Source of the DNA: a virus
Taxonomy: Duplodnaviria > Heunggongvirae > Uroviricota > Caudoviricetes
Virus record (IMG/VR): IMGVR_UViG_2778261303_000009
Length of the DNA: 37,383 nucleotides
Direction: 5' to 3' (one strand)
In this document: one piece after another, positions 1 to 37,096 of the stretch
Layout: each line of letters opens with the position of its first letter
How positions within the stretch are numbered: position 1 is the first letter of the stretch
Position numbers and translations under genes: made by a program
The notes under the pieces: model-generated
What the model was told of the DNA's origin: nothing
Seen by the model: only the letters and a program-made list of their open reading frames with translations
Database searches by the model: none

Positions 1-1053
1 TTACGGGGTAATGCCAACCGCTGCCGCCACTTTGTCGCCACTTGGCAGCGTTGCCAGAGGATTGAAACGGAGCGCCGTTTCCAGATGGTCCGGTGCCAGA
101 TGTGCGTAACGCATAGTCATTTTTATATCGTGGTGTCCGAGAATTTTTTGTAAGGCCAGAATGTTTCCACCCGACATCATGAAATGCGCCGCAAACGTAT
201 GGCGCAGAACGTGTGTCAGTTGACCGCGAGGGAGCACGATAGACGTTTTTTCCATCACGGATAAAAATTGAAAATAGCAGTCTGTGAAGAAATTGAACCC
301 ATCAAGCGCCATGATCTCTTCGTAAAGCTCTTTACTGATAGGGATGCTTCTGTTTTTCTTCCCCTTCGTTCTTACAAAGGTAATTCGGTATTTGGTCACC
401 TGTGAGCGGGTAAGATTTACGGCTTCTCGCCAGCGTGCGCCTGTGCTTAAGCATATTTTGACTACCAGAGCCAGAATTGGGTCCTGACGTTTGCAATCAG
501 CCAGCAGTTCAACAATCTGCTCATGGGTAAGCCATGCCATCTCTTTTTCTGCGATGGTGAATTTTCGCATGTTCTCCAGTGGGTTCGGATACGACCATTC
601 GCCCAGGCGGGATAGTTCGCTAAAAACACTACTTAGATAGCTTTGCTCCAGGTTAATGGTGACCGGGCTGGCTCCTTTCTTCCATTTCTCGCTGAAGTAG
701 ATCTCACCTGTCAGTCGTTTATCTCGATAATGGGCAAACATTTTAGATGTGAGATCGGTTGCAAGGGGATTGCCCAGAGCGTCAACCATCAGCAGCAATT
801 TGTCATAGACATGCTGCCCAGCAGTCAGAGATTTACCATGTAGTTTGAACCATAGCTCAACCACGTCTTTCAGGGTTCGACGATCCACTGATTCGCCCAG
901 CCAGGGCTTTGATTCGGTTTCTTCCATCGTGTGACGCTCAAAAGCAAGAGCTTCGCCTTTGGTGGCGAATTGTTTACGCACACGACGCCCACTACGTCCG
1001 GCGGGGTAACATTCGCAAAGCCATTTTCCTGTGGTGAGTTTTCGTACTGCCAT
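1..1053 (-). CDS. int: Tyrosine integrase, P2/186 family
   Basis: Minus-strand ORF with N-terminus MAVRKLTTGKWLCECYPAGRSGRRVRKQF and C-terminal catalytic region (HVLRHTFAAHF...MRYAHL). ATG at 1051..1053 is preceded by a GGAGGG RBS; the stop codon is bases 1..3 of the window. Confidence 0.9.
   Translation of the reverse strand: MAVRKLTTGKWLCECYPAGRSGRRVRKQFATKGEALAFERHTMEETESKPWLGESVDRRTLKDVVELWFKLHGKSLTAGQHVYDKLLLMVDALGNPLATDLTSKMFAHYRDKRLTGEIYFSEKWKKGASPVTINLEQSYLSSVFSELSRLGEWSYPNPLENMRKFTIAEKEMAWLTHEQIVELLADCKRQDPILALVVKICLSTGARWREAVNLTRSQVTKYRITFVRTKGKKNRSIPISKELYEEIMALDGFNFFTDCYFQFLSVMEKTSIVLPRGQLTHVLRHTFAAHFMMSGGNILALQKILGHHDIKMTMRYAHLAPDHLETALRFNPLATLPSGDKVAAAVGITP
19..40. repeat. Left copy of putative att core (cgctgccgccaCtttgtcgcca), inside the 3' end of int
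   Basis: 22-bp direct repeat with one mismatch to 34529..34550, which lies immediately after the ogr stop codon. Position matches the P2-family arrangement ogr-attP-int. Confidence 0.5.
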
Positions 1054-1239
1054 AAAAAATACCCTCCAGTGGAGAGTATTTTTGCTGTATATATAACCAG
1101 TGTCAATGTATGAAATCTTGCGACCATACATCTCACTGAAGCCATAATGAAGTTGGCTATTTTTTGCTATGTGAGTATGTGACTTTTGCGGTTAGCCTGC
1201 GGCTCATTGTTATATTAGGCGCAGATATAAAAGCAAAAA

Positions 1240-3946: not shown

Positions 3947-4800
3947 GCACCATCCTGAAATGGGCGGGAAATAAAACCGCCATAATGTCCGAACTGAAAA
4001 AGCATCTTCCTGCTGGCCCGCGACTGGTTGAACCTTTCGCGGGTTCCTGTGCAGTGATGATGGAGACGGATTACCCCAGCTATCTTGTTGCGGATATTAA
4101 TCCTGATTTAATCAACCTCTATAAAAAGGTTGCTGCTGATTGTGAGGCGTTTATATCTCGTGCCAGAGCTTTATTTGAGGAAGCAAACAGGGAGGTGGCT
4201 TATTACAACATAAGGCAGGAGTTTAATTACTCCACTGAAATTACTGATTTCATGAAAGCGGTATATTTTCTGTATCTCAATCGTCATGGTTACCGTGGGT
4301 TATGTCGCTATAACAAGAGCGGGTATTTCAACATTCCCTACGGTAATTATAAAAATCCGTATTTCCCTGAAAAAGAAATTCGCGCATTTGCAGAGAAAGC
4401 CCAGCGGGCAACGTTTATCTGCGCCAGCTTTGATGAAACGCTGGCGATGTTGAAGGTGGGGGATGTGGTGTATTGCGATCCGCCTTATGACGGTACGTTT
4501 TCCGGCTATCACACTGATGGCTTCACTGAAGATGACCAGTATCACCTGGCATCCGTTCTTGAACATCGATCATCTGAAGGTCATCCGGTCATTGTTTCTA
4601 ACAGTGACACATCCCTGATTCGTTCGCTGTATCGCAATTTCACTCACCACTACATCAGGGCAAAACGCAGCATCGGCGTGTCGGCTGGCGAGAGTAAATC
4701 TGCAACAGAAATCATTGCTGTTTCCGGGGCGCGCTGCTGGGTGGGATTTGATTATTCGCGTGGCGTGGATAGTTCTGCCGTGTACGGAGTACGTGCATGA
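3943..4800 (+). CDS. dam: DNA adenine methyltransferase (Dam-like, D12-class N6-MTase)
   Basis: N-terminus [11 protein letters not shown] with FAGSCAV SAM-binding motif and catalytic DPPY motif (VYCDPPYDG). GGAGG RBS upstream; stop overlaps the A start (ATGA). Confidence 0.85.
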
Positions 4801-7208
4801 GCCATGCCGATATGAACAACTGCTGCGGCTTTAACGAGGCTGCCGCAGCGTTCTCATGGAACAGCCCGAAAAAGGCCATTAACCCTTATCTGGACCCGGC
4901 GGAAGTTGCGCCGGTTTCTGCGCTTTCAAACCTGATCACTCTGTACGCTGCCGATAACGAGCAGGAACAGTTGCGCCGCGAGGCACTGAGTGATCAGGTC
5001 TGGGAGCGTTATTTTTTTAATGAATCACGTGATCCTGTCCAGCACGAAATGGAGCAGGATAAGCTCATTAGCCGGGCAAAGCTGGCGCATGAGCAGCAGC
5101 GTTTTAATCCGGATATGGTCATTCTGGCGGACGTCAACGCCCAGCCTTCCCATATCAGCAAGCCGCTGATGCAACGTATTGAATACTTCAGCAGCCTGGG
5201 CAGGCCAAAGGCTTATTCCCGCTATTTACGTGAGACGATTAAGCCATGTCTGGAACGACTGGAGCATGTACGCGACAGCCAGCTATCTGCATCTTTTCGT
5301 TTTATGGCAAGCCATGTAGGGCTGGACGGCCTGCTGATTCTGCCTGAAATGAGTCAGGATCAGGTGAAACGCCTGTCTACCCTTGTCGCTGCGCATATGA
5401 GCATGTGCCTTGATGCAGCTTGTGGTGATTTGTATGCCACCGATGACGTTAAGCCAGAAGAAATCCGCAAGACATGGGAAAAGGTGGCAGCAGAAACCCT
5501 GCGACTGGATGTTATCCCGCCTGCGTTTGAGCAACTCCGCCGGAAAAGAAACCGCCGTAAACCCGTGCCCTATGAACTCATTCCGGGTTCGCTGGCGCGT
5601 ATGTTGTGCGCCGACTGGTGGTACCGGAAATTATGGAAGATGCGTTGCGAATGGCGGGAAGAGCAGTTGCGTGCTGTTTGCCTGGTCAGCAAAAAAGCAT
5701 CTCCCTATGTCAGCTATGAAGCCGTGATGCATAAACGTGAGCAGCGCCGTAAGTCGCTGGAGTTTTTTCGTTCTCATGAACTGGTGAACGAAGACGGCGA
5801 CACGCTGGACATGGAGGATGTGGTAAACGCCAGCAGCAGCAACCCTGCGCATCGCCGCAATGAGATGATGGCCTGTGTTAAAGGTCTGGAGCTTATCGCG
5901 GAAATGCGCGGTGACTGCGCCGTTTTCTACACCATCACCTGTCCGTCACGTTTCCATTCCACGCTAAATAACGGCAGGCCCAACCCGACCTGGACAAATG
6001 CGACAGTAAGACAAAGCAGTGATTATCTGGTCGGCATGTTTGCTGCATTTCGTAAGGCAATGCATAAAACCGGGCTGCGCTGGTATGGCGTGCGGGTGGC
6101 TGAGCCGCACCATGACGGTACTGTGCACTGGCATCTCATGTGTTTCATGCGCAAAAAAGACCGCCGCGCCATTACTGCATTGTTGCGTAAGTTTGCCATC
6201 CGTGAAGACCGCGAGGAGCTGGGCAATAACACGGGGCCACGCTTTAAGTCTGAGCTGATAAACCCGCGCAAAGGAACGCCGACAAGCTACATCGCGAAAT
6301 ACATCAGTAAGAACATTGACGGACGTGGTCTGGCTGGCGAGATCAGCAAGGAAACGGGTAAATCCCTGCGTGATAACGCCGAATACGTTAATGCCTGGGC
6401 GTCTCTGCATCGTGTTCAGCAGTTCCGCTTCTTTGGTATTCCGGGGCGTCAGGCTTACCGTGAACTTCGCTTGCTGGCTGGTCAGGCGGCAAGGCAACAG
6501 GGTGACAAAAAAGCAGGTGCGCCAGTACTGGATAACCCGCGCCTTGATGCCATTCTGGCTGCTGCTGATGCTGGCTGTTTTGCCACCTACATTATGAAGC
6601 AGGGCGGTGTACTGGTTCCCCGTAAATATCACCTCATCAGAACCGCTTATGAAATCAACGAAGAGCCGACCGCCTATGGCGATCACGGTATTCGTATTTA
6701 TGGCATCTGGTCACCCATTGCAGAGGGCAAGATCTGCACTCATGCGGTGAAGTGGAAAATGGTTCGTAAGGCCGTTGACGTTCAGGAGGCGGCAGCCGAC
6801 CAGGGCGCTTGCGCCCCTTGGACTCGTGGCAATAACTGTCCCCTTGCTGAAAATTTGAACCAACAGGAGAAAGATAAATCAGCTGATGGGGACACCAGAA
6901 CGGACATTACCCGCATGGATGACAAGGAGTTGCACGATTACCTGCACAGTATGAGCAAAAAAGAGCGCCGGGAACTGGCTGCAAGGTTACGTCAGGTGAA
7001 ACCGAAACGGCGTAAAGACTACAAACAGCGAATTACAGACCATCAGCGACAGCAGCTCGTCTATGAACTGAAGTCCAGGGGATTTGATGGCAGCGAGAAA
7101 GAAGTCGATTTGCTCCTTCGCGGTGGCAGTATTCCGTCAGGAGCAGGCCTGCGTATCTTCTATCGGAACCAGCGTTTGCAGGAAGATGATAAGTGGCGAA
7201 ACCTGTAG
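4797..7208 (+). CDS. A: Replication initiation endonuclease (P2 gpA / rolling-circle Rep family)
   Basis: 803-aa ORF with an HUH-like motif (TVHWHLMCF) and a double-tyrosine active-site motif ([10 protein letters not shown]) characteristic of P2 A-type replication proteins. Confidence 0.9.
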
Positions 7209-7303
7209 TGATTACGCTGGTTAACAATTTCTGCTCTTAATAATACCAGGCCTATCAGGCTGATGAACGTAAAAAAACGTTTTACATCAGTAAGATTATT
7301 ATA

Positions 7304-7323
7304 TACTGTAAATATAAACAGTG
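7304..7323 (+). promoter_or_regulatory. LexA (SOS) box TACTGTAAATATAAACAGTG
   Basis: Perfect CTGT-N8-ACAG palindrome with AT-rich centre, about 40 bp upstream of a strong RBS (AGGAGG 7355..7360) and the ATG at 7365. Confidence 0.6.
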
Positions 7324-7364
7324 GTTATGTATACAGTATTGCTTGTAGTGTCATAGGAGGAAAG

Positions 7365-7553
7365 ATGCAGGACTATTTTTTGGAGTCTTTGAAGCTCCAG
7401 CGCATTGATTTTTTTCTTAAGCTTGTAGCGGCCAGTGAGTGTAGTGATGAAGAGAAGAGACTGGCTATCCAGTGGGTTTCTGAGCTGACTGACGAGTTGA
7501 TGGCGAAAATTCGTAACTATGAATACAGCCGTACAATGGACGCTACCAGCTAG
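7365..7553 (+). CDS. SOS-regulated small protein (possible Tum-like antirepressor N-terminal part)
   Basis: 62-aa ORF, ATG at 7365 behind an AGGAGG RBS and the LexA box. Position after gene A corresponds to the LexA-controlled tum region of phage 186. Upstream in-frame extension to 7263 lacks an RBS. Confidence 0.5.
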   Translation: MQDYFLESLKLQRIDFFLKLVAASECSDEEKRLAIQWVSELTDELMAKIRNYEYSRTMDATS

Positions 7554-7563
7554 GGGAAAACCT

Positions 7564-7793
7564 ATGCGCATTGAAACAATGATCGATAAAGAGCAGTAAA
7601 TTAGCCAGGCGCTGTTAGAAGCCGTTGAATCCGAGCTTTACCGCAACCTGCAGCCTATCTATCCAAAGACAGCAATCCGCATTCGTAAAGGTTCGGCAAA
7701 CGGCGTTGAGCTGAGCGGCTTAAAACTTGATGAAGACAAAAGCGAGTGATGGAAATCATGCAGCATGTTTGGGAAGATGAGAGCTGGTTTTAA
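7564..7793 (+). pseudogene. DinI-family gene disrupted by an in-frame stop and a frameshift
   Basis: MRIETMIDKEQ then TAA at 7597..7599; the same frame continues ISQALLEAVESELYRNLQPIYPKTAIRIRKGSANGVELSGLKLDEDKSE to a stop at 7747. A shifted frame (7749..7793) encodes MEIMQHVWEDESWF, matching the DinI C-terminus (ETWESADDWF). Confidence 0.55.
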
Positions 7794-7816
7794 ATATCGA
7801 TTTAGGGGAAAATCTC

Positions 7817-7842
7817 AACCTCATGCAGTATCGCATGAGGTT
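7817..7842 (+). terminator. Hairpin (10-bp stem aacctcatgc / gcatgaggtt, 6-nt loop) downstream of the tum/dinI-like region
   Basis: Perfect inverted repeat followed by a weak T-rich stretch (cattt); marks the boundary before the AT-rich cargo region. Confidence 0.3.
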
Positions 7843-8010
7843 CATTTAGGCGAAATTTGTGGGAATTTTCTACAAGTTTATGAGCGAATAATTCATTTTT
7901 GATGTGTTAATTTCTTAACAATTTTGGCTTTAATTCTTGTAAAGCAAGACATAACGTTTATGATTGATAAATATAAAAAAATCTGAATAGGCAGGAAAGG
8001 AGTTTAACTC

Positions 8011-8526
8011 ATGCCTGGGTTAGAAAATGCACAGCAAAATCAAGTTGATGAAATCGTTCCAGCAATGCAAATCGCATTGGTCGAAGAAGATATAGAACAA
8101 CCCATCGCTGCCGAATACCTATACAGCCAGCATATAAGTGCGCTTGTGCCACAATGCCCTCCTGCCGAAGCGACAGAGTGCGATAGAGAATGCTGGCGTT
8201 TTACACTGAATCCTATAAGTCACAACTGCTTTTGGCCTCCAAAAAGAAGATCACCGCAGCGAATTGCTTCCGACGATGCGGAGGAGTGTTCTATGTGGGC
8301 GTTGTCTATGTATGAATCAGAGGCCCAGGCTACAAGAGCCTATACCATGTTAGCGAAGAAGATGAAAAATATCAGAAAAGCTATTGGTGATCACCTTGCT
8401 GTGGGTTCAGTAACCTGTAGTGATGGTAAATGTATGCCTGCTAGCAGAACCGGTCACTTTGATTTTCATCCTTATGTGGATGCGGATTTCGTTAACGGGT
8501 TCCAAGTAATACGAGCATTACCATGA
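8011..8526 (+). CDS. Cargo protein 1 (171 aa, no recognised domain)
   Basis: ATG at 8011 behind an AAGGAG RBS, after an AT-rich promoter-like spacer. First gene of a co-directional three-gene block; stop overlaps the next start (ATGA). Confidence 0.6.
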   Translation: MPGLENAQQNQVDEIVPAMQIALVEEDIEQPIAAEYLYSQHISALVPQCPPAEATECDRECWRFTLNPISHNCFWPPKRRSPQRIASDDAEECSMWALSMYESEAQATRAYTMLAKKMKNIRKAIGDHLAVGSVTCSDGKCMPASRTGHFDFHPYVDADFVNGFQVIRALP

Positions 8527-9614
8527 TAAAATTAGATGCTAGAAGAATAAATGCGTCAACTGTCGGAGATTATTCTTGGTACTCTGACCTCGTATATTTC
8601 GATGGTCCCCTAATTTGCTTGTTTAGAGGAAGCGGATATAAAGATGCTCTTTATGTCTGGCTCGATAATTCGGAGCGTGCCAATCGTTGGTGCTTGATTC
8701 CAGTATCAAGATCTACTTTGGACTCTTATCTTAACCAAAGAATGAGTTTAAGGGAGATTATACAATCGAGCGAATATACATATATCTGCGATCATTTTGC
8801 GGAAACAGGAAGGAAGCACTACAACATTTTGCACGTTGATAGTTTTCCTGAGGAGTATATGCCTGATGAAGATTCATATTTGTATGAAGAAATATGTACT
8901 GATGATGCATTGCTGTTGAAGCAGGAGCGCACCTCCAGTTATATGCTTGGATTAGATAATCAGTTGTTTATAAATGATTTATCTGTAATACCAAAAATTT
9001 TCGAACAGCTCTATTCTTTCCATTACGGATTGGCTCATTTAGGACGGTTGTCGATTAGAAATACCATGTTGCGTCTGATGGGGAATTGGACGGGTGGAAT
9101 ATCAGCAGTAAATATATTTTCAGGGTTGAAAAATGTTATTCCTGTTTTGCATCGACCAGAGATTAGCTCTCTCCAATACAATTCACCGGGGCATATTGAG
9201 TTAAATTTACTTCCTGATTTGGCTCAAAGTGTTCAAGATGCATCTATTCGTGTGAAAAGTGAGCTAGTTTATGACCGTCTGGAGAAAATGTATAAAAATA
9301 CATATGCATACTTCAAGGATAATGGGCTGTCAGGCTTTGATGAAGACGGCGGCATTGAAATTAGAAATATCGATAGTGATACCACCGAAAACCTACGTAA
9401 ACGCGTAAGAATATTTTTTAGATGTTTGGGGTGGTCAAGTTATCAAGCTCAGTTTGATCTGATCGGTGCCCATCCTCTACAACAATTACGTGCTGTGATG
9501 GCCTACTACAGGCGGCTCAAAATCTTGCGTGAATACATTGTCTCCGAGAAGCTTTTTGTTGGTCAGTCTCGGCTGTTACAGCAGCCACAAATTGCTCTGC
9601 CTCCTGAGGATTAG
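8523..9614 (+). CDS. Cargo protein 2 (363 aa, no recognised domain)
   Basis: Translationally coupled to protein 1. AT-rich codon usage unlike the flanking phage genes. Confidence 0.65.
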   Translation: MIKLDARRINASTVGDYSWYSDLVYFDGPLICLFRGSGYKDALYVWLDNSERANRWCLIPVSRSTLDSYLNQRMSLREIIQSSEYTYICDHFAETGRKHYNILHVDSFPEEYMPDEDSYLYEEICTDDALLLKQERTSSYMLGLDNQLFINDLSVIPKIFEQLYSFHYGLAHLGRLSIRNTMLRLMGNWTGGISAVNIFSGLKNVIPVLHRPEISSLQYNSPGHIELNLLPDLAQSVQDASIRVKSELVYDRLEKMYKNTYAYFKDNGLSGFDEDGGIEIRNIDSDTTENLRKRVRIFFRCLGWSSYQAQFDLIGAHPLQQLRAVMAYYRRLKILREYIVSEKLFVGQSRLLQQPQIALPPED

Positions 9615-9631
9615 ATTCTGCGTTATGCTGC

Positions 9632-10972
9632 ATGAATCCGCATGATCGTTTGAGGATCGTTCTAGATGAGGCCCGCCAGCAATGGCGGGCTTTTGCTAAT
9701 GTCATGCTGGCGCATGAAAACCGCTACATAAAGTGGGCAGGCGTGGCGGGGATACGATTGCGCGCTTATTCCAAAACGGCAATAATTAACTTTTCAAAAC
9801 ATCTACCAGGAAAGACAATGCTTATCTGCGAAGACCATATCGTCGAACCAAACGTAAAAAATCATGTTCGTCTGCAAACTGACAACAACATTTGTGTGTT
9901 TTGTAATGCTGTTACAAAATGCCTAGATACTGATTCGATAGAAGCTCGAAATTTGCTAAAAGCAATCTTACGTTATAACTTTGATGAAGTTCTCTATAAT
10001 ACACATATTGGTGGTGACTATTTCCCAGGTTTTTTATTAGCAGATGATTATATATTTTGCAGGGATATCCAAAGTTACGCTGAAGCATTTACTGATCTTG
10101 ATAGTGAAATATGGAGTATGGGGTTCACAACTGCAGGTGAGATTGATATACATTCAGGACATGATCAAGATGGCATGATGAATATGCCGCTTATGTCAAT
10201 TATTAACTCATATCATCCATTTATAGGAAAATTATCTAAGAAACTTGCTGAAGTAAATTACCATGAGTTTGAAGATGAATTGAGGGATATCATTAAAGAT
10301 TATGGGAATTCTTTTGCCAAAATAATTGAGGGTGGTTCTGTAGTTTATCGTGCTCGCGTAGGGACTGCTGGTTATAAAAAAGCTCATGAAGATTTTAACT
10401 ATGAAGGGAAGAAAATATTCGTTCCATACAAAAATAAAGAAATAGGTTCTGTTCCTCCTCTTAAAGCAACGGCAGGTAGAGCTAATAGAGTCGGGGTTTC
10501 ATACTTATATTGCGCGACTGATAGCTATACAGCGATCGCTGAGGTGAGACCTCATCCTACAGATGTAGTTTCTTTAGGTAAATTTAGCGTATCGCGAGCT
10601 TTAAAAGTATTCGATTTTTCATATCCAAACTTATTAGACTTTATCGAAAATGGCGATACTTTATTGAGAATGATTCCTTACGCTAAAATGGCGGGTATTT
10701 ATAATACCGCTACACCCCCCTCTTTGGAAGGAAGGTATAGTGTTTCGCAGCTCATATCTGACTGCATAAGAAAGGAAGGATACGATGGCATACAGTTTTC
10801 AAGCACTGTTGGTGAAGGGAAAAATTTAGTTGTGTTTAATCCTAGTTACATGGAATTTATTGAGGGGAGTTCAACGGTAATTGAAATTGACAAGGTACAA
10901 TATACATACAAAGAAAAACAAGTAGTAGGGATGAATGATCAGTGGGAGATTTATTATAATGAAGTTGAATAG
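9632..10972 (+). CDS. Cargo protein 3 (446 aa): N-terminal Cys/His-containing region plus C-terminal RES-like domain
   Basis: C-terminal half carries RES-domain-like motifs: VVYRARVG, then AGRANRVGVSYLYCATDSYTAIAEVRPH (GRxN...LYxA...AxxE), then GYDGIQFSSTVGEGKNLVVFNP (DGIxxxS...N.VVF). The start codon is uncertain because the RBS is weak. Confidence 0.65.
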   Translation: MNPHDRLRIVLDEARQQWRAFANVMLAHENRYIKWAGVAGIRLRAYSKTAIINFSKHLPGKTMLICEDHIVEPNVKNHVRLQTDNNICVFCNAVTKCLDTDSIEARNLLKAILRYNFDEVLYNTHIGGDYFPGFLLADDYIFCRDIQSYAEAFTDLDSEIWSMGFTTAGEIDIHSGHDQDGMMNMPLMSIINSYHPFIGKLSKKLAEVNYHEFEDELRDIIKDYGNSFAKIIEGGSVVYRARVGTAGYKKAHEDFNYEGKKIFVPYKNKEIGSVPPLKATAGRANRVGVSYLYCATDSYTAIAEVRPHPTDVVSLGKFSVSRALKVFDFSYPNLLDFIENGDTLLRMIPYAKMAGIYNTATPPSLEGRYSVSQLISDCIRKEGYDGIQFSSTVGEGKNLVVFNPSYMEFIEGSSTVIEIDKVQYTYKEKQVVGMNDQWEIYYNEVE

Positions 10973-10981
10973 GTAAATGTG

Positions 10982-11003
10982 GCTCCGCAATTTTTGGCGG
11001 AGC
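10982..11003. terminator. Bidirectional hairpin between convergent cargo operon and portal gene (gctccgc-aatttttg-gcggagc)
   Basis: 7-bp perfect stem with a T-rich loop and flank, in the 44-bp gap between the stop of cargo protein 3 (10972) and the stop of Q (11017). Confidence 0.35.
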
Positions 11004-11016
11004 TAATTTTATGATG

Positions 11017-12048
11017 TTAACCTAATGAGTATGAGTCAAATCTTATTGTTTTATCTCCTAGCCAATTGTTAATTTCGACCATTCTTTTCTGTAATGGAAT
11101 AAGCTCATTTCGCACAAATACATTAGCCGCCTTCTCCACATCCCCAAATCCCCCAACATTATTCGGCATAATCCCCATCATTTGCGGCGGTACACGGTGC
11201 GCAGCCATCATGTCATCACGGCTCACGTTCTTGATATTCAGAAACTCATCCTTCGCTGCGACTTCTGACAACGGGATAATCTGAAGTCCGTCCTTTTTGC
11301 CGTTAGGCGAGTACATAAACAGATTGCGGAAGTTGCCAGGGCCTTTGGCGCTTTTCATCGCATTGCGGAGGTTGTTCACATCCTCCTGGTTCTGCGCTGC
11401 ATCGGTCATGTACATGATGAAGCCTGCATGACTACCGTTAATGTAATATTTGCGGCGGAACAGCGTGGCGGACTCGTTGAGCAAAGCGGATGGGATGGCA
11501 GAAAGATAGCCGGGCAGGCCGTAGATCTCCTGATTAATATCCGGTTCCATCAGATGAAAAATGCTGCCTTTCGTGAACTGATACGGCTGGGTTGTCATAC
11601 CGTATTGCACAAACCAGTAGGTATCCAGGTCTAACCCGCGTCGGGTATATTTTGCCAGGGCAGGCTCAAGGGCGATAACTTCACCGAAGCGGTTCGTGCG
11701 TTTCTCCAGGTAGGCGTTACCAAATACCAGGTAGTCCTGCACAAAACGTGAAAAAGCCTGCTGGCTGAGCAGCGGGTGAGGGATATAGGTACTGGTCAGA
11801 ATGTTGCACTTTACTGCAATCGGGGAACTGTGATGCACGGCAGCGCGGAAGGTGCGCGCCAGTCCGTCAAAGCTGACGGGCGGCTCATACCAACGGTCCA
11901 TCTGTACGCATTCCACATAGTCCAGTAGTTCGCGGCGGTCCAGAACAGGAACGGGATCACCGAAGCTGAATGCTTCGGCTGTAGTTTGACTTTTATGCTG
12001 GATCTGGTTCGTCGACGCAGCGCGGTTCTTCTTACTCTTTCCCATCAA
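11017..12048 (-). CDS. Q: Portal protein (P2 gpQ-like)
   Basis: 343-aa ORF resembling P2-family portal proteins as recalled. Overlaps the terminase gene start, as in the P2 Q-P operon. Confidence 0.9.
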   Translation of the reverse strand: MMGKSKKNRAASTNQIQHKSQTTAEAFSFGDPVPVLDRRELLDYVECVQMDRWYEPPVSFDGLARTFRAAVHHSSPIAVKCNILTSTYIPHPLLSQQAFSRFVQDYLVFGNAYLEKRTNRFGEVIALEPALAKYTRRGLDLDTYWFVQYGMTTQPYQFTKGSIFHLMEPDINQEIYGLPGYLSAIPSALLNESATLFRRKYYINGSHAGFIMYMTDAAQNQEDVNNLRNAMKSAKGPGNFRNLFMYSPNGKKDGLQIIPLSEVAAKDEFLNIKNVSRDDMMAAHRVPPQMMGIMPNNVGGFGDVEKAANVFVRNELIPLQKRMVEINNWLGDKTIRFDSYSLG

Positions 12049-19442: not shown

Positions 19443-21197
19443 TCAATCCCAAAATAAATTATTATTAATATTGCTCATATCGAAAGTGAAGTTCTTTTCT
19501 GTAATAGTTTCGTACCTTTGTTCATAGATTATTTTTACATATCTAAACCCCTGTGTTACAGAGCGAATTTTTCGGGGTTTTGATGCAAGCATAACAAGTA
19601 TTTCAAATACTTTATCAAGATAGTTGTGGGTGTGTTCAACTAAAAGGGGGGTAAATTTACCACCTTTTCCAGAATGGACTATGTTATTTCTTGTTCTATA
19701 AATTCTTCTGAGTTGCCATTCTAATCTTAACTTATGGTTATCTAAAGTTGATTTAATTGACTCCGGGGATGAAACTATGTTTTTTATATACTCGAAACGA
19801 TCTGAAAGCAATGTGTAATCACGAAATTTAGCGGATAAAGATTCCCTTACTGATTCGTATTCAGGAAGAATCATTATATTGGCTAGTTTGTGTTTCGCTT
19901 TTGCTCCAGGTATTCCTTTTAAATGTGAGTTTAGCATGTGCCTATTCCATAACAGCAGGTCTCGAGTAAGGTTGTCAATTAAGGAGTCTATATATGTAAT
20001 ATTCAGGAATGGAATTATACTTGCAGTAATATGTTCTATTGTTGCTTGATCCTTGGATTTAGTGTCTGTCGGCACTAATGATTCAAGAGCTATCCATAGA
20101 TTTAAAAGCTGATTTTCAACATTTTCACTTTTTAATGCCATTGAATGTAATTGAATACTTCTCAAGAACTTGGCAAATGAACTATTTTCTAGAGAAAACT
20201 CAGACATCAATGATTCAAGACGTTTCTTGGCCTTTTCATGCTTTAAGTCCTTGCATTTTTTCATGGGGTTAAGTCTTTCAGCCACTTTCAAAGAGTCTGT
20301 ATCAGTTATAACGAAAGCTTCATTTGACCAAGTAGGTTTATCTTTATGATGATAAATATTTAAAAAGGATGATGCTAATTTAAGTAGGTTTTCAGCATTC
20401 TCTCTTGCTGAATAAGAATCAAAAGCTTCTATATTTGATACGCAAACTATCTTCTTTCTTTGCAGATTTCTAAAAAAAACATGTTGGGAAAATTCTTCTG
20501 GTGGTTCTTTCTCAACAGACAAAGAGAGTCTTTCGAAAGTTGGCTCGGCGCCTAAAAACACTGGTTCAACAATAAAATATATTTTGTATTTCTTTTTTTC
20601 GAGTTTTATTAAATCAAAAAAAGAAGAGACATCAGTGTTATTTGAGATTTTATTATTCCCATAATAAAAAAATTGCTGGGTTAAATTCTTAAGATTATGT
20701 TGGCTAAAGCCAATGTAGAGTAATAAGCTGATATAATTTCTTGTTAGCTTGCGTATGATGCTTCTTTCCCAGTTTGGGGATGATAACTCTTGGGTGATAA
20801 GTTCTTCACTTTTTTCTTTATATAATTTGGGTGGTAATTGAATGACCAGCATTTCAATTATTGAGCTTCTCTCTTTAGGGCTTATGTTAGTATTTTTTAG
20901 TTTGTTGAGAAAAGCTTGGTAAGCATCGCCTAATAAATGTTGTGCTACTTTATCACATGACAAGTTATGTATTAATTCTGCGGTTAAATGTTCAATATTT
21001 TTAGGCTGAATAATACCATCCTCAACATCTTTAATTGTATTTAAAGTTTCTATTCCAATTGTTGGGGTATTCATCACTGAGGGTTTGTATGTGTCCAGTG
21101 TATAGTCAAATAGCATTTCATCCAGTAATTGCGCAAAATATACTAGTGCTTTACAAGTGTCTGGGCAATCCCATTTATACAAAGAACGAAATTTCAT
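19443..21197 (-). CDS. Cargo protein (584 aa) with C-terminal HEPN-type RNxxxH motif; candidate abortive-infection RNase
   Basis: Very AT-rich ORF antisense to the late operon, between S and V. Near the C-terminus, LEWQLRRIYRTRNNIVHSGKGG contains RNNIVH (R-N-x3-H), encoded at 19674..19691. Confidence 0.65.
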   Translation of the reverse strand: MKFRSLYKWDCPDTCKALVYFAQLLDEMLFDYTLDTYKPSVMNTPTIGIETLNTIKDVEDGIIQPKNIEHLTAELIHNLSCDKVAQHLLGDAYQAFLNKLKNTNISPKERSSIIEMLVIQLPPKLYKEKSEELITQELSSPNWERSIIRKLTRNYISLLLYIGFSQHNLKNLTQQFFYYGNNKISNNTDVSSFFDLIKLEKKKYKIYFIVEPVFLGAEPTFERLSLSVEKEPPEEFSQHVFFRNLQRKKIVCVSNIEAFDSYSARENAENLLKLASSFLNIYHHKDKPTWSNEAFVITDTDSLKVAERLNPMKKCKDLKHEKAKKRLESLMSEFSLENSSFAKFLRSIQLHSMALKSENVENQLLNLWIALESLVPTDTKSKDQATIEHITASIIPFLNITYIDSLIDNLTRDLLLWNRHMLNSHLKGIPGAKAKHKLANIMILPEYESVRESLSAKFRDYTLLSDRFEYIKNIVSSPESIKSTLDNHKLRLEWQLRRIYRTRNNIVHSGKGGKFTPLLVEHTHNYLDKVFEILVMLASKPRKIRSVTQGFRYVKIIYEQRYETITEKNFTFDMSNINNNLFWD

Positions 21198-34763: not shown

Positions 34764-36449
34764 TTATCCTAATCCTGGCCATACCATGACGATGATTGTC
34801 CCTGCCAGCGTCAGCAGGACGTTGGCGATTGCATAGGTGCCCGCATAGCCCAGCGCCGGGATGTTACTGCGAGCTGTATCACTGATGATCTCCATTGCCG
34901 GCGCGCAGGTACGTGCGCCCATCATTGCGCCGAACAACAGCGCGCGGTTCATTCGCAATACATAAGCACCGAACAAGAAACAGATAACCACGGGCACCAG
35001 ACTGACAATCAATCCGGCAATCAACATCTGACCGCCAATCGCGCCCAGGCCGTTATTAATACCGCTACCGGCGCTCAGACCAACGCCTGCCATAAACACC
35101 ATCAAGCCGAACTCTTTCACCATGCTTAATGCACCCTGCGGAATGTAACCGAAGGTCGGGTGGTTAGCACGCATAAAGCCCAGCATAATTCCGGCGAATA
35201 ACAACCCGGCAGCGTTCCCCATGCCGAAACTGAATGTGCTGAACTGGAAGGTGATCATCCCGATCATCAGCCCAATAACAAAGAAGGCGCAAAATGCCAG
35301 CAGGTCAGTGACCTGGCTGTGAATCGAGATAAAGCCGATGCGATCGGCGATGGTTTTTACGCGACGGGCATCACCGCTGACTTGTAAAACGTCACCTTTG
35401 TTAAGCACGACGTTGTCATCTATCGGCATCTCAATCTGGCTACGAATGACGCGGTTAAGGAAGCAACCGTGATCGGTCAACTTCAGTTGTGCGAGACGTT
35501 TACCTACAGCGTTATGGTTTTTAACGACCACTTCTTCAGTGACGATACGCATGTCGAGAAGGTCACGATCGAAAACTTCTTTACCGTTACGGAAGCTGGG
35601 ATCGAGTCGGGCATGGGCGTCGGGATAGCCTACCAACGCTATTTCATCGCCCATTTGTAGCACGGCATCACCGTCTGGATTTGCCAGAATCCCGTTACGT
35701 CGAATACGTTCAATGTAGCAGCCGGTTTGTCGATAAATACCCAGTTCACGCAGATTTTTGCCGTCGGTCCAGGCCACCAGCTCCGGGCCGACGCGATAGG
35801 CGCGGATCACCGGTAAATAAACCTTACGGTTGGCATCAGTGTCCAGGCCACGTTCGCGGGCGATTTGCTGGGCGCTGGTCTGTAAGTCCTGATGCTGCAA
35901 TTTCGGCAAGTAACGCGCACCAACAATCAAACTCACCAGACCGATTAAATAGGTTAAGGCATACCCGAGGCTCAGATTATCCAGTGCCAGTGAGAGCTGC
36001 CTGCTTTCCATGCCGGAATGACGCAGTGTATCGCCAGCACCGACCAGAACCGGTGTCGACGTCATAGAGCCTGCTAACATACCGGCCGTCAGGCCAATAT
36101 CCCAGCCAAACAGCTTACCTAACCCTAAGGCGATCACCAGCGCACTGCCAACCATCACCAGTGCTAACATTAGGTAATTTTTCCCATCGCGAAAAAAAAT
36201 GGAAAAAAAGTTCGGTCCGGCTTCAACCCCAACACAGAAAATAAACAGCATAAAGCCAAGATTAAGCGCATCGGTGTTAATGCTGAAATGTTGTTGGCCT
36301 AATAACAGCGATACGACTAAAACGCCAATGGAATTACCCAGTTGGATCGAACCAAGTCGTAACTTTCCGAGACATAGCCCAAGCGCGAGGACCACAAATA
36401 ATAACAGAATGTAATTCCCATTTAACAATTCGGCGACGTTTATATTCAC
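34764..36449 (-). CDS. ybjL: Putative transport protein YbjL (AAE-type transporter with two RCK_C/TrkA-C domains)
   Basis: 561-aa membrane protein, N-terminus [42 protein letters not shown] matches E. coli YbjL as recalled. Synteny with ybjM and grxA. Confidence 0.85.
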
Positions 36450-36718
36450 GGAGGCTAACTTCTTGTTTACTAGTAAGCTGTTGAAAGAAATGGTAATTTA
36501 CGATAATGTTTTTTACCAGAATTCAGGGCGCAGATTCATTCAGCGCACCTAAACGATAGTAAAGTAACAATATATTTTACTAGTGTAATCACATTAGGTA
36601 TCAACGGCTATATGAATTGCGTTGGCCTATATTAGCATGGAATGCGAAGCGGCTTTATCTTACTGAACGCCACACTGGCGAAAAATGTGTTCGATAGACG
36701 CAGTGTCAGGAGGAACGA

Positions 36719-37096
36719 GTGAAACATAAACAACGTTGGGCGGGGGCAATCTGCTGTTTTGTCCTCTTCATTGTGGTGTGCCTTTTTCTGGCGACGCACA
36801 TGAAAGGCGCTTTTCGGGCTGCCGGGCATCCTGAAATCGGCTTGCTATTTTTCATTCTTCCTGGAGCAGTCGCCAGCTTCTTTTCACAGCGTAGAGAAGT
36901 CCTGAAACCTCTGTTTGGCGCAATGCTGGCGGCACCCTGTTCGATGCTCATTATGCGGCTGTTTTTTTCACCGACGCGCTCATTCTGGCAAGAGCTGGCA
37001 TGGTTATTAAGTGCGGTGTTCTGGTGTGCGCTGGGGGCACTGTGTTTCTTATTTATCAGTAGTTTGTTTAAACCACAGCACAGAAAAAATCAGTAA
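36719..37096 (+). CDS. ybjM: Inner membrane protein YbjM
   Basis: 125-aa hydrophobic ORF with a GTG start behind an AGGAGG RBS, between ybjL and grxA as in E. coli. Confidence 0.75.
   Translation: MKHKQRWAGAICCFVLFIVVCLFLATHMKGAFRAAGHPEIGLLFFILPGAVASFFSQRREVLKPLFGAMLAAPCSMLIMRLFFSPTRSFWQELAWLLSAVFWCALGALCFLFISSLFKPQHRKNQ

Follow-up and report, generated by a model that had tools for sequence, protein, structure and literature searches.

A gene at positions 9818-10972 (plus strand, stop codon included) of the window, the 37,383-nucleotide stretch of viral DNA analyzed here (IMG/VR record IMGVR_UViG_2778261303_000009), probably encodes a single-protein antiphage system of the aRES type, 384 amino acids (aa) in length and borne, as an AT-rich moron, in the short gap that separates cos from the portal gene. 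The aRES proteins are standalone proteins of 300-600 aa that contain a RES domain and PF18870 (Osterman et al., bioRxiv 28 January 2026, doi 10.64898/2026.01.28.702374). Three enterobacterial members, from E. coli UC5, K. pneumoniae S_34AVR and E. chengduensis GN04826, protected E. coli from diverse phages, arresting growth and depleting NAD+ upon infection; they generate ADPR-1''-phosphate, and hence the phage NARP1 pathway fails to rescue infection (Osterman et al., 2026). Active-site mutations abolish this defense, the UC5 constructs being R182A, R184A, R215A, Y225A, E236A and S334A (Osterman et al., 2026). The preprint identified neither the trigger nor the role of the N-terminal domain, and prophages go unmentioned in it. 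The assignment of the window protein to this family follows from its architecture, its standalone context, the conservation of all six UC5 residues and a full-length profile match.

The RES (ART-fold) catalytic domain spans residues ~170-350 (10325-10867, plus strand). The window protein matched Pfam RES (PF08808) with 66.8-67.2 bits against a gathering score of 23.2 (E 2e-18 to 2.9e-18), as did 31 of 31 homologues. A confident AlphaFold2 model built from the family alignment (pLDDT 88.4, pTM 0.85) has the RES/ART three-dimensional fold, and its best structural matches were the NAD+ phosphorylases MbcT and NatT; all of its solved structural neighbors are toxins of toxin-antitoxin systems. The link to the solved RES toxins came from fold comparison only and not from sequence, as the family profile found no sequence match at E ≤10 among all PDB chains, and a related NTD1+RES profile returned chance-level matches and a weak NatT match only. 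Key residues of the domain are R178 (codon at 10349), R180 (10355), R221 (10478), Y231 (10508), E242 (10541), S329 (10802) and N336 (10823), all read from the plus strand. The first six are invariant in the 31 homologues (alignment A2), and the Arg-Glu-Ser motif is present together with the Arg and Tyr of the NAD+ site. The RES call had first been made in a sequence-only reading, whose quoted motifs are all contained in the mechanically defined ORF at 9632-10972 (446 codons), and which proposed a PF08808 search and a structural comparison with RES toxins as checks. Both were carried out, and the score far above the gathering threshold, the ART fold of the model and the invariant key residues uphold it.

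The N-terminal domain (residues 1-165; 9818-10312, plus strand) is a divergent HEPN/RES-NTD1 domain. It opens with a CxxH...CxxC knuckle formed by C4, H7, C26 and C29, which presumably binds zinc, and continues into a helical region with the invariant residues R52, E57, Y60, G65 and N147. C4, C26 and C29 are invariant in alignment A2, and position 7, which is His in the window protein, is Cys in 130 of 146 representative relatives. The knuckle bears out the earlier proposal that RES is fused to a Cys/His-bearing N-terminal domain, although the ~230 aa then given to this region shrink to ~165 aa once 62 spurious codons are removed (discussed below). Fusions of HEPN/RES-NTD1 to RES, sometimes with an additional N-terminal zinc ribbon, have been described (Anantharaman et al., 2013, PMC3710099). 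PF18870 (HEPN/RES-NTD1) occupies the same place in more distant relatives, and hhalign related the N-terminus alone to the N-termini of PF18870-bearing proteins with a probability of 96.9% (E 1.4e-10). By hmmscan, PF18870 gave no direct match to the window protein and matched one of 31 family members, at E 0.11; the validated UC5 aRES also lies below the PF18870 threshold (21.3 vs 27.4 bits). The N-terminal domain of the window clade constitutes its own subfamily of ~250 clusters, its profile having found 247 representative clusters (50% identity) among 1.84 billion proteins. Among the 146 of these that were retrieved, 87 are at least 340 aa long and cluster at ~375-420 aa, lengths that imply that this domain is essentially always paired with RES. 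One relative, P0175 (612 aa), carries the same N-terminal domain and RES followed by a ~220-aa C-terminal extension with an HD-like His/Asp-rich motif, and may be a two-effector variant.

Profile comparison by hhalign aligned the window protein with the validated aRES over its full length (99.9%, E 2.9e-32), collinear and in register between the first CxxC and the C-terminal end of RES. BLASTP against UC5 aRES gave 31% identity over 203 residues, in the RES domain only (E 7e-13), and UC5 R182, R184, R215, Y225, E236 and S334 align to R178, R180, R221, Y231, E242 and S329 of the window protein, such that every UC5 residue whose mutation abolishes defense is conserved. At 384 aa with a PF08808 domain, the protein falls within the size range and composition of the family, and it has no conserved partner gene, in agreement with the standalone nature of aRES. 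The authors of the family further require an N-terminal PF18870 by profile-profile search at a probability >80%, for which the hhalign value for the N-terminus serves as a proxy, being a comparison with PF18870-bearing proteins rather than the authors' exact test.

The resemblance to the tested proteins thus extends to a standalone single gene of 300-600 aa with an N-terminal knuckle and HEPN/RES-NTD1 and a C-terminal RES domain. The differences are that sequence identity is only ~31% and restricted to RES; that the second metal ligand is His in the window protein and Cys in aRES (CxxC...CxxC); that the tested aRES (first 399 aa) run ~40 residues past the aligned RES, whereas the window protein ends soon after it; and that the gene lies between cos and portal of a P2-like phage, a context absent from the preprint. 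Judged by sequence, the protein is a divergent member of an already described family and not a new system or mechanism. Its novelty is lowered by the description and testing of the family in January 2026 and by the NCBI name already given to the same protein, 'RES family NAD+ phosphorylase'. What it contributes is a divergent, prophage-borne branch of the newly described family, and a compact variant (384 aa, CxxH knuckle) that should be of use for tracing what triggers the system and what its N-terminal domain does. PADLOC v2 lacks a model of this protein, and a search of the annotated phage collection found no close protein relative, two weak tblastn matches and DNA sharing confined to the cos element.

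By homology with the tested aRES proteins and the RES toxins MbcT and NatT, the RES protein would be made at a low level in the uninfected lysogen, its N-terminal domain holding it inactive in cis, and would be activated upon infection by another phage. The activated RES domain would then cleave NAD+ with inorganic phosphate as the nucleophile, yielding nicotinamide and ADP-ribose-1''-phosphate. The ensuing collapse of NAD+ would stop growth, so that the infecting phage fails to propagate, and with ADPR-1''P rather than ADPR as the product, the NAD+-rebuilding NARP1 pathway of a phage could not undo the damage. An NAD+-depleting abortive-infection effector regulated in cis, as the sequence-only reading had suggested, remains the best reading by analogy with the preprint on standalone RES+PF18870 proteins.

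The same architecture and defensive role could in principle be combined with a different chemistry, in which a protein or nucleic-acid target is ADP-ribosylated in the manner of ParT and no NAD+ phosphorolysis takes place. ParT of Sphingobium, which ADP-ribosylates Prs and is paired with ParS, provides the precedent for such an activity; the window protein misses the cutoff of the Res_ParT_toxin model. This alternative is unlikely, given that structure comparison matched the protein best to the NAD+ phosphorylases MbcT and NatT, that it is related to aRES by a full-length profile match and that aRES proteins produce ADPR-1P.

RES proteins are also known as toxins. Both MbcT (M. tuberculosis Rv1989c, 183 aa) and NatT (P. 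aeruginosa, ~250-264 aa) are neutralized by an antitoxin encoded in the adjacent gene, MbcA and NatR, respectively, whereas the window protein has no antitoxin gene and instead bears the ~165-aa N-terminal domain fused in cis. That an Xre antitoxin is lacking had been remarked upon earlier and was confirmed: the proteins encoded just upstream, PD-T4-10 A and B, both lack an HTH or DUF2384 match, and an adjacent Xre/DUF2384 antitoxin gene, which defines RES-Xre pairs, was not found. It is very unlikely, then, that the RES protein serves as toxin in a classical RES toxin-antitoxin or addiction module stabilizing the prophage, with an antitoxin that is small or unrecognized, even though its solved structural neighbors are all toxins of this kind and a small ORF (54-72 aa, phrog_28685) is annotated just upstream in some genomes. 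The small ORF overlies cos, its frame is not conserved and its substitutions are not coding-like; no ORF of at least 60 aa overlaps or abuts the RES gene on any other frame; and no neighbor is conserved across contexts. Furthermore, the score for NCBIfam NF049844 (Res_ParT_toxin) was 11.6 bits against a cutoff of 110, and tested relatives of the same architecture were tolerated alone.

The aRES-type gene resides in what is a complete P2/186-like prophage, with an integrase (1-1131, minus strand), the replication endonuclease gpA (4797-7208), a CI-type repressor, a Dam-like methylase and a terminase gene. The portal gene (P2 Q/186 W homologue; 11017-12048, minus strand), placed from the ORF list and by tblastn to the portal genes of 10 loci, is the right boundary of the slot that holds the RES gene. 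The region from gpA to the portal gene is AT-rich cargo, with a GC content of 0.36-0.45 (0.36 for the RES gene) compared to 0.50-0.57 for the phage backbone. The cos-proximal region of P2-like phages is a known hotspot for defense genes (Rousset et al., 2022, PMC9122126; Vassallo et al., 2022, PMC9519451), and 'KAP_NTPase + hypothetical + RES' arrangements with WP_077758113 were already listed in P2 hotspots, untested there (Rousset et al., 2022, Table S1, PMC9122126). The window gene shares this cos-proximal variable region of P2-like prophages with the P2 old/tin genes and the gpA-gpQ hotspot. It differs from old/tin in being located to the right of cos; old/tin are on its left, at the right end of virion DNA. 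The prophage ends at ~34.3 kb and is followed by host genes; those at 34764-37096, a YbjL-like Asp-Al_Ex/TrkA_C permease and YbjM, mark the integration locus.

A conserved cos-region element of P2/186-like phages (~145 nt, 9624-9768), with GCATGA repeats and a GC hairpin, precedes the RES gene. It aligns to the joined right-end/left-end junction of P2, occurs in 74 phage records and is found with 78-99% identity ~50-55 bp 5' of the RES start in 10 loci. Within it, the 19-nt cohesive end, i.e., the cos cleavage site GGCGTGGCGGGGATACGAT, was located at 9740-9758 by alignment to the annotated P2 and 186 ends: the P2 cosL/cosR cohesive end GGCGAGGCGGGGAAAGCAC aligns to this interval, and the cos of phage 186, GGCGTGGCGGGGAAAGCAT, is identical to the window end at 16 of 19 positions and in the next heptamer, TGCGCGC. 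Copies of GCATGA are found, for example, at 9630-9645 and 9713-9718. The hairpin (GCCCGCC-agcaat-GGCGGGC, then TTTT) lies at 9671-9690, and its stem sequence varies in L004, L015 and L017; as a terminator for PD-T4-10, it failed the T-tail rule of the terminator scan. These repeats and the hairpin are possibly recognition sites for terminase or a terminator of the left-hand cargo. An Rfam search of 7200-11100 found nothing meaningful, its one sub-threshold match (CRISPR-DR9) lying on the cos hairpin.

To the left of cos are PD-T4-10 A (8011-8526, plus strand; PADLOC E 9.8e-76) and PD-T4-10 B (8523-9614, plus strand; PADLOC E 1.3e-172). In this system B is toxic and A neutralizes it, and the pair provides abortive-infection defense (Vassallo et al., 2022, PMC9519451). 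The adjacency and common direction of the three genes, and the recurrence of this arrangement on four contigs that carry the exact RES protein, would fit a three-gene system in which the RES protein is a third component or effector gated by the two upstream proteins. Such a system is highly improbable, because A/B is a validated, self-sufficient two-gene defense resembling a toxin-antitoxin pair, because the cos site and GC hairpin separate B from the RES gene, and because in 13 complete E. coli genomes (L001, in which A/B are 100% identical to the window pair, and 12 further genomes) an AbiU/AIPR gene comes after an identical A/B pair and cos. Conversely, the RES gene occurs without PD-T4-10 A/B in nine of 10 P2-like loci. 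It is the only cargo in L013/L015, whose RES proteins are 94% identical, and elsewhere it follows unrelated systems, as the cargo found left of cos in RES-bearing phages is PDC-S49 (KAP NTPase), PDC-M18 A/B, PDC-S42 or a 901-aa HSDR_N/S1 protein, or is absent. The co-occurrence and co-transcription with PD-T4-10 that a third component should display were not observed. Because cos lies between RES and A/B, the neighbors of RES vary and A/B are found with other right-hand genes, the locus comparisons indicate that the RES gene is a self-contained module separate from PD-T4-10, and the suggestion of gating by the upstream proteins was abandoned.

The order gpA, variable cargo, cos element, RES and portal holds in all 10 P2-like loci, with RES proteins 40-100% identical to that of the window. 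The window and the 13 E. coli prophages share 99% identity across PD-T4-10 and cos and then lose all similarity within ~8 bp of the cohesive end (window ~9759-9766 vs L001 6566), the window continuing into RES and the E. coli prophages into AbiU/AIPR. Between cosL and the portal gene, P2 and 186 have only ~170 bp of noncoding DNA, which ends in tQ/tW; in the window, this space is filled by the 1155-bp RES gene, which starts 60 bp past the cohesive end. As the A/B pair is found with different right-hand genes and RES with different left-hand cargo, the P2 'gpA-gpQ hotspot' is best described, from these comparisons, as two slots that are split by cos and reassort independently. Shared homology for this reassortment of the two slots seems to be supplied by the cos region itself. 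Lysogens of this phage would have at least two independent abortive-infection systems, PD-T4-10 on one side of cos and aRES on the other, along with a candidate ApeA-like third (described below).

The position of cos also bears on the boundaries of the gene, which the sequence-only reading had taken to be 446 aa long. The 384-aa protein starts with MLICEDH, corresponding to M63 of the mechanical ORF, and the 62-codon 5' extension (9632-9817, plus strand) is noncoding DNA that spans the cos region. A start equivalent to 9818 was found in 30 of 30 homologues of diverse sources (alignment A2), and E. coli homologues with 74% protein identity are annotated as 384-aa proteins from the M63 equivalent, with stop codons upstream. 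The ATG at 9818 is preceded by AGGAAA, a purine-rich SD is present 5' of the RES ATG in all loci compared, and the sequence before the ATG at 9632 contains no SD. The long, 446-codon frame is open only in the window and L013/L015; L014, whose RES protein is 89% identical, has an in-frame stop in the extension, and in five other loci the frame is shifted or interrupted by stops. When the window is compared with L015, substitutions in the RES gene number 13/9/41 at codon positions 1/2/3, a third-position bias that implies purifying selection, and those in the 62 upstream codons number 11/16/9, with no such bias. The DNA of the extension also precedes the AIPR gene in L001. Based on the homologue starts, the cos element, the broken frames, the codon-position substitutions and the SD at 9818, it was concluded that the gene is 9818-10972 and that the first 62 codons are noncoding.

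That the 446-aa ORF is nevertheless a real product, at least in lysogens with an intact cos, and adds a 62-aa N-terminal extension is barely credible: the frame is open in the window and L013/L015 although this stretch is only 78% identical as DNA, and the NCBI annotation gives a 446-aa protein, but the stop and frame differences in relatives, the substitution pattern, the missing SD and the presence of the stretch as a conserved cos element in phages with other genes there all argue against it. The only PHROGs match, phrog_28685 (72 positions), is to spurious residues 1-47, and both it and the NCBI annotation appear to stem from ORF calls that run through the conserved cos of P2-like phages rather than from genuine coding sequence. 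The 384-aa model thereby corrects a gene model propagated in NCBI, in which the 446-aa annotation crosses the cos site.

A candidate weak promoter for the RES gene, picked by eye, is located at 9758-9786 (plus strand; TTGCGC, a 17-nt spacer and AATAAT; 8/12 to consensus). A promoter scan upstream of the gene found no site at its threshold; in the candidate region, TTGCGCGC and GGCAATAAT are conserved in RES-bearing loci. Downstream, a terminator-like hairpin (10980-11005, plus strand), recognized from the terminator scan and the sequence, lies between the RES stop and the portal stop, in the position of the annotated tQ/tW of P2 and 186. The candidate -35 box (9758-9763) begins on the final base of the 19-nt cohesive end. 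If this overlap matters, the promoter would be intact only with cos ligated, i.e., in the prophage or the circularized genome, and cleavage of cos by terminase during the carrier's own packaging would sever or occupy it. If cleavage silences the promoter in this way, the carrier phage could be spared its own abortive-infection gene. That the ~385-aa clade is a distinct aRES subtype adapted as the left-most virion gene of P2-like phages, with a promoter intact only at ligated cos, has perhaps an outside chance of being correct; the clade could also diverge from the tested aRES proteins in trigger or chemistry.

Homologues were also observed away from the cos-portal slot. In L007 (Yersinia proxima, 6001-7143) and L008, a 51% identical homologue lies outside the integrase end of a 186-like prophage, in L007 between host PAP2 genes and int rather than at cos, and may represent the same module moved to the opposite prophage boundary. 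At a nonphage locus, L009 (7245-11669), three proteins that have no Pfam domains (964, 326 and 127 aa) come after a RES homologue, and the first of them has a weak PADLOC match to type IIG REase-MTase (E 5e-6); this locus may be a defense island with uncharacterized genes. Within the window itself, a 584-aa ORF (19443-21197, minus strand) in an island of GC 0.32-0.41 within the late-gene region occupies the position of the second P2 hotspot (Z/fun). It has no Pfam match, and a PADLOC match to ApeA (E 1.2e-12) that covers residues 337-535 only makes it a candidate third defense gene of the prophage.
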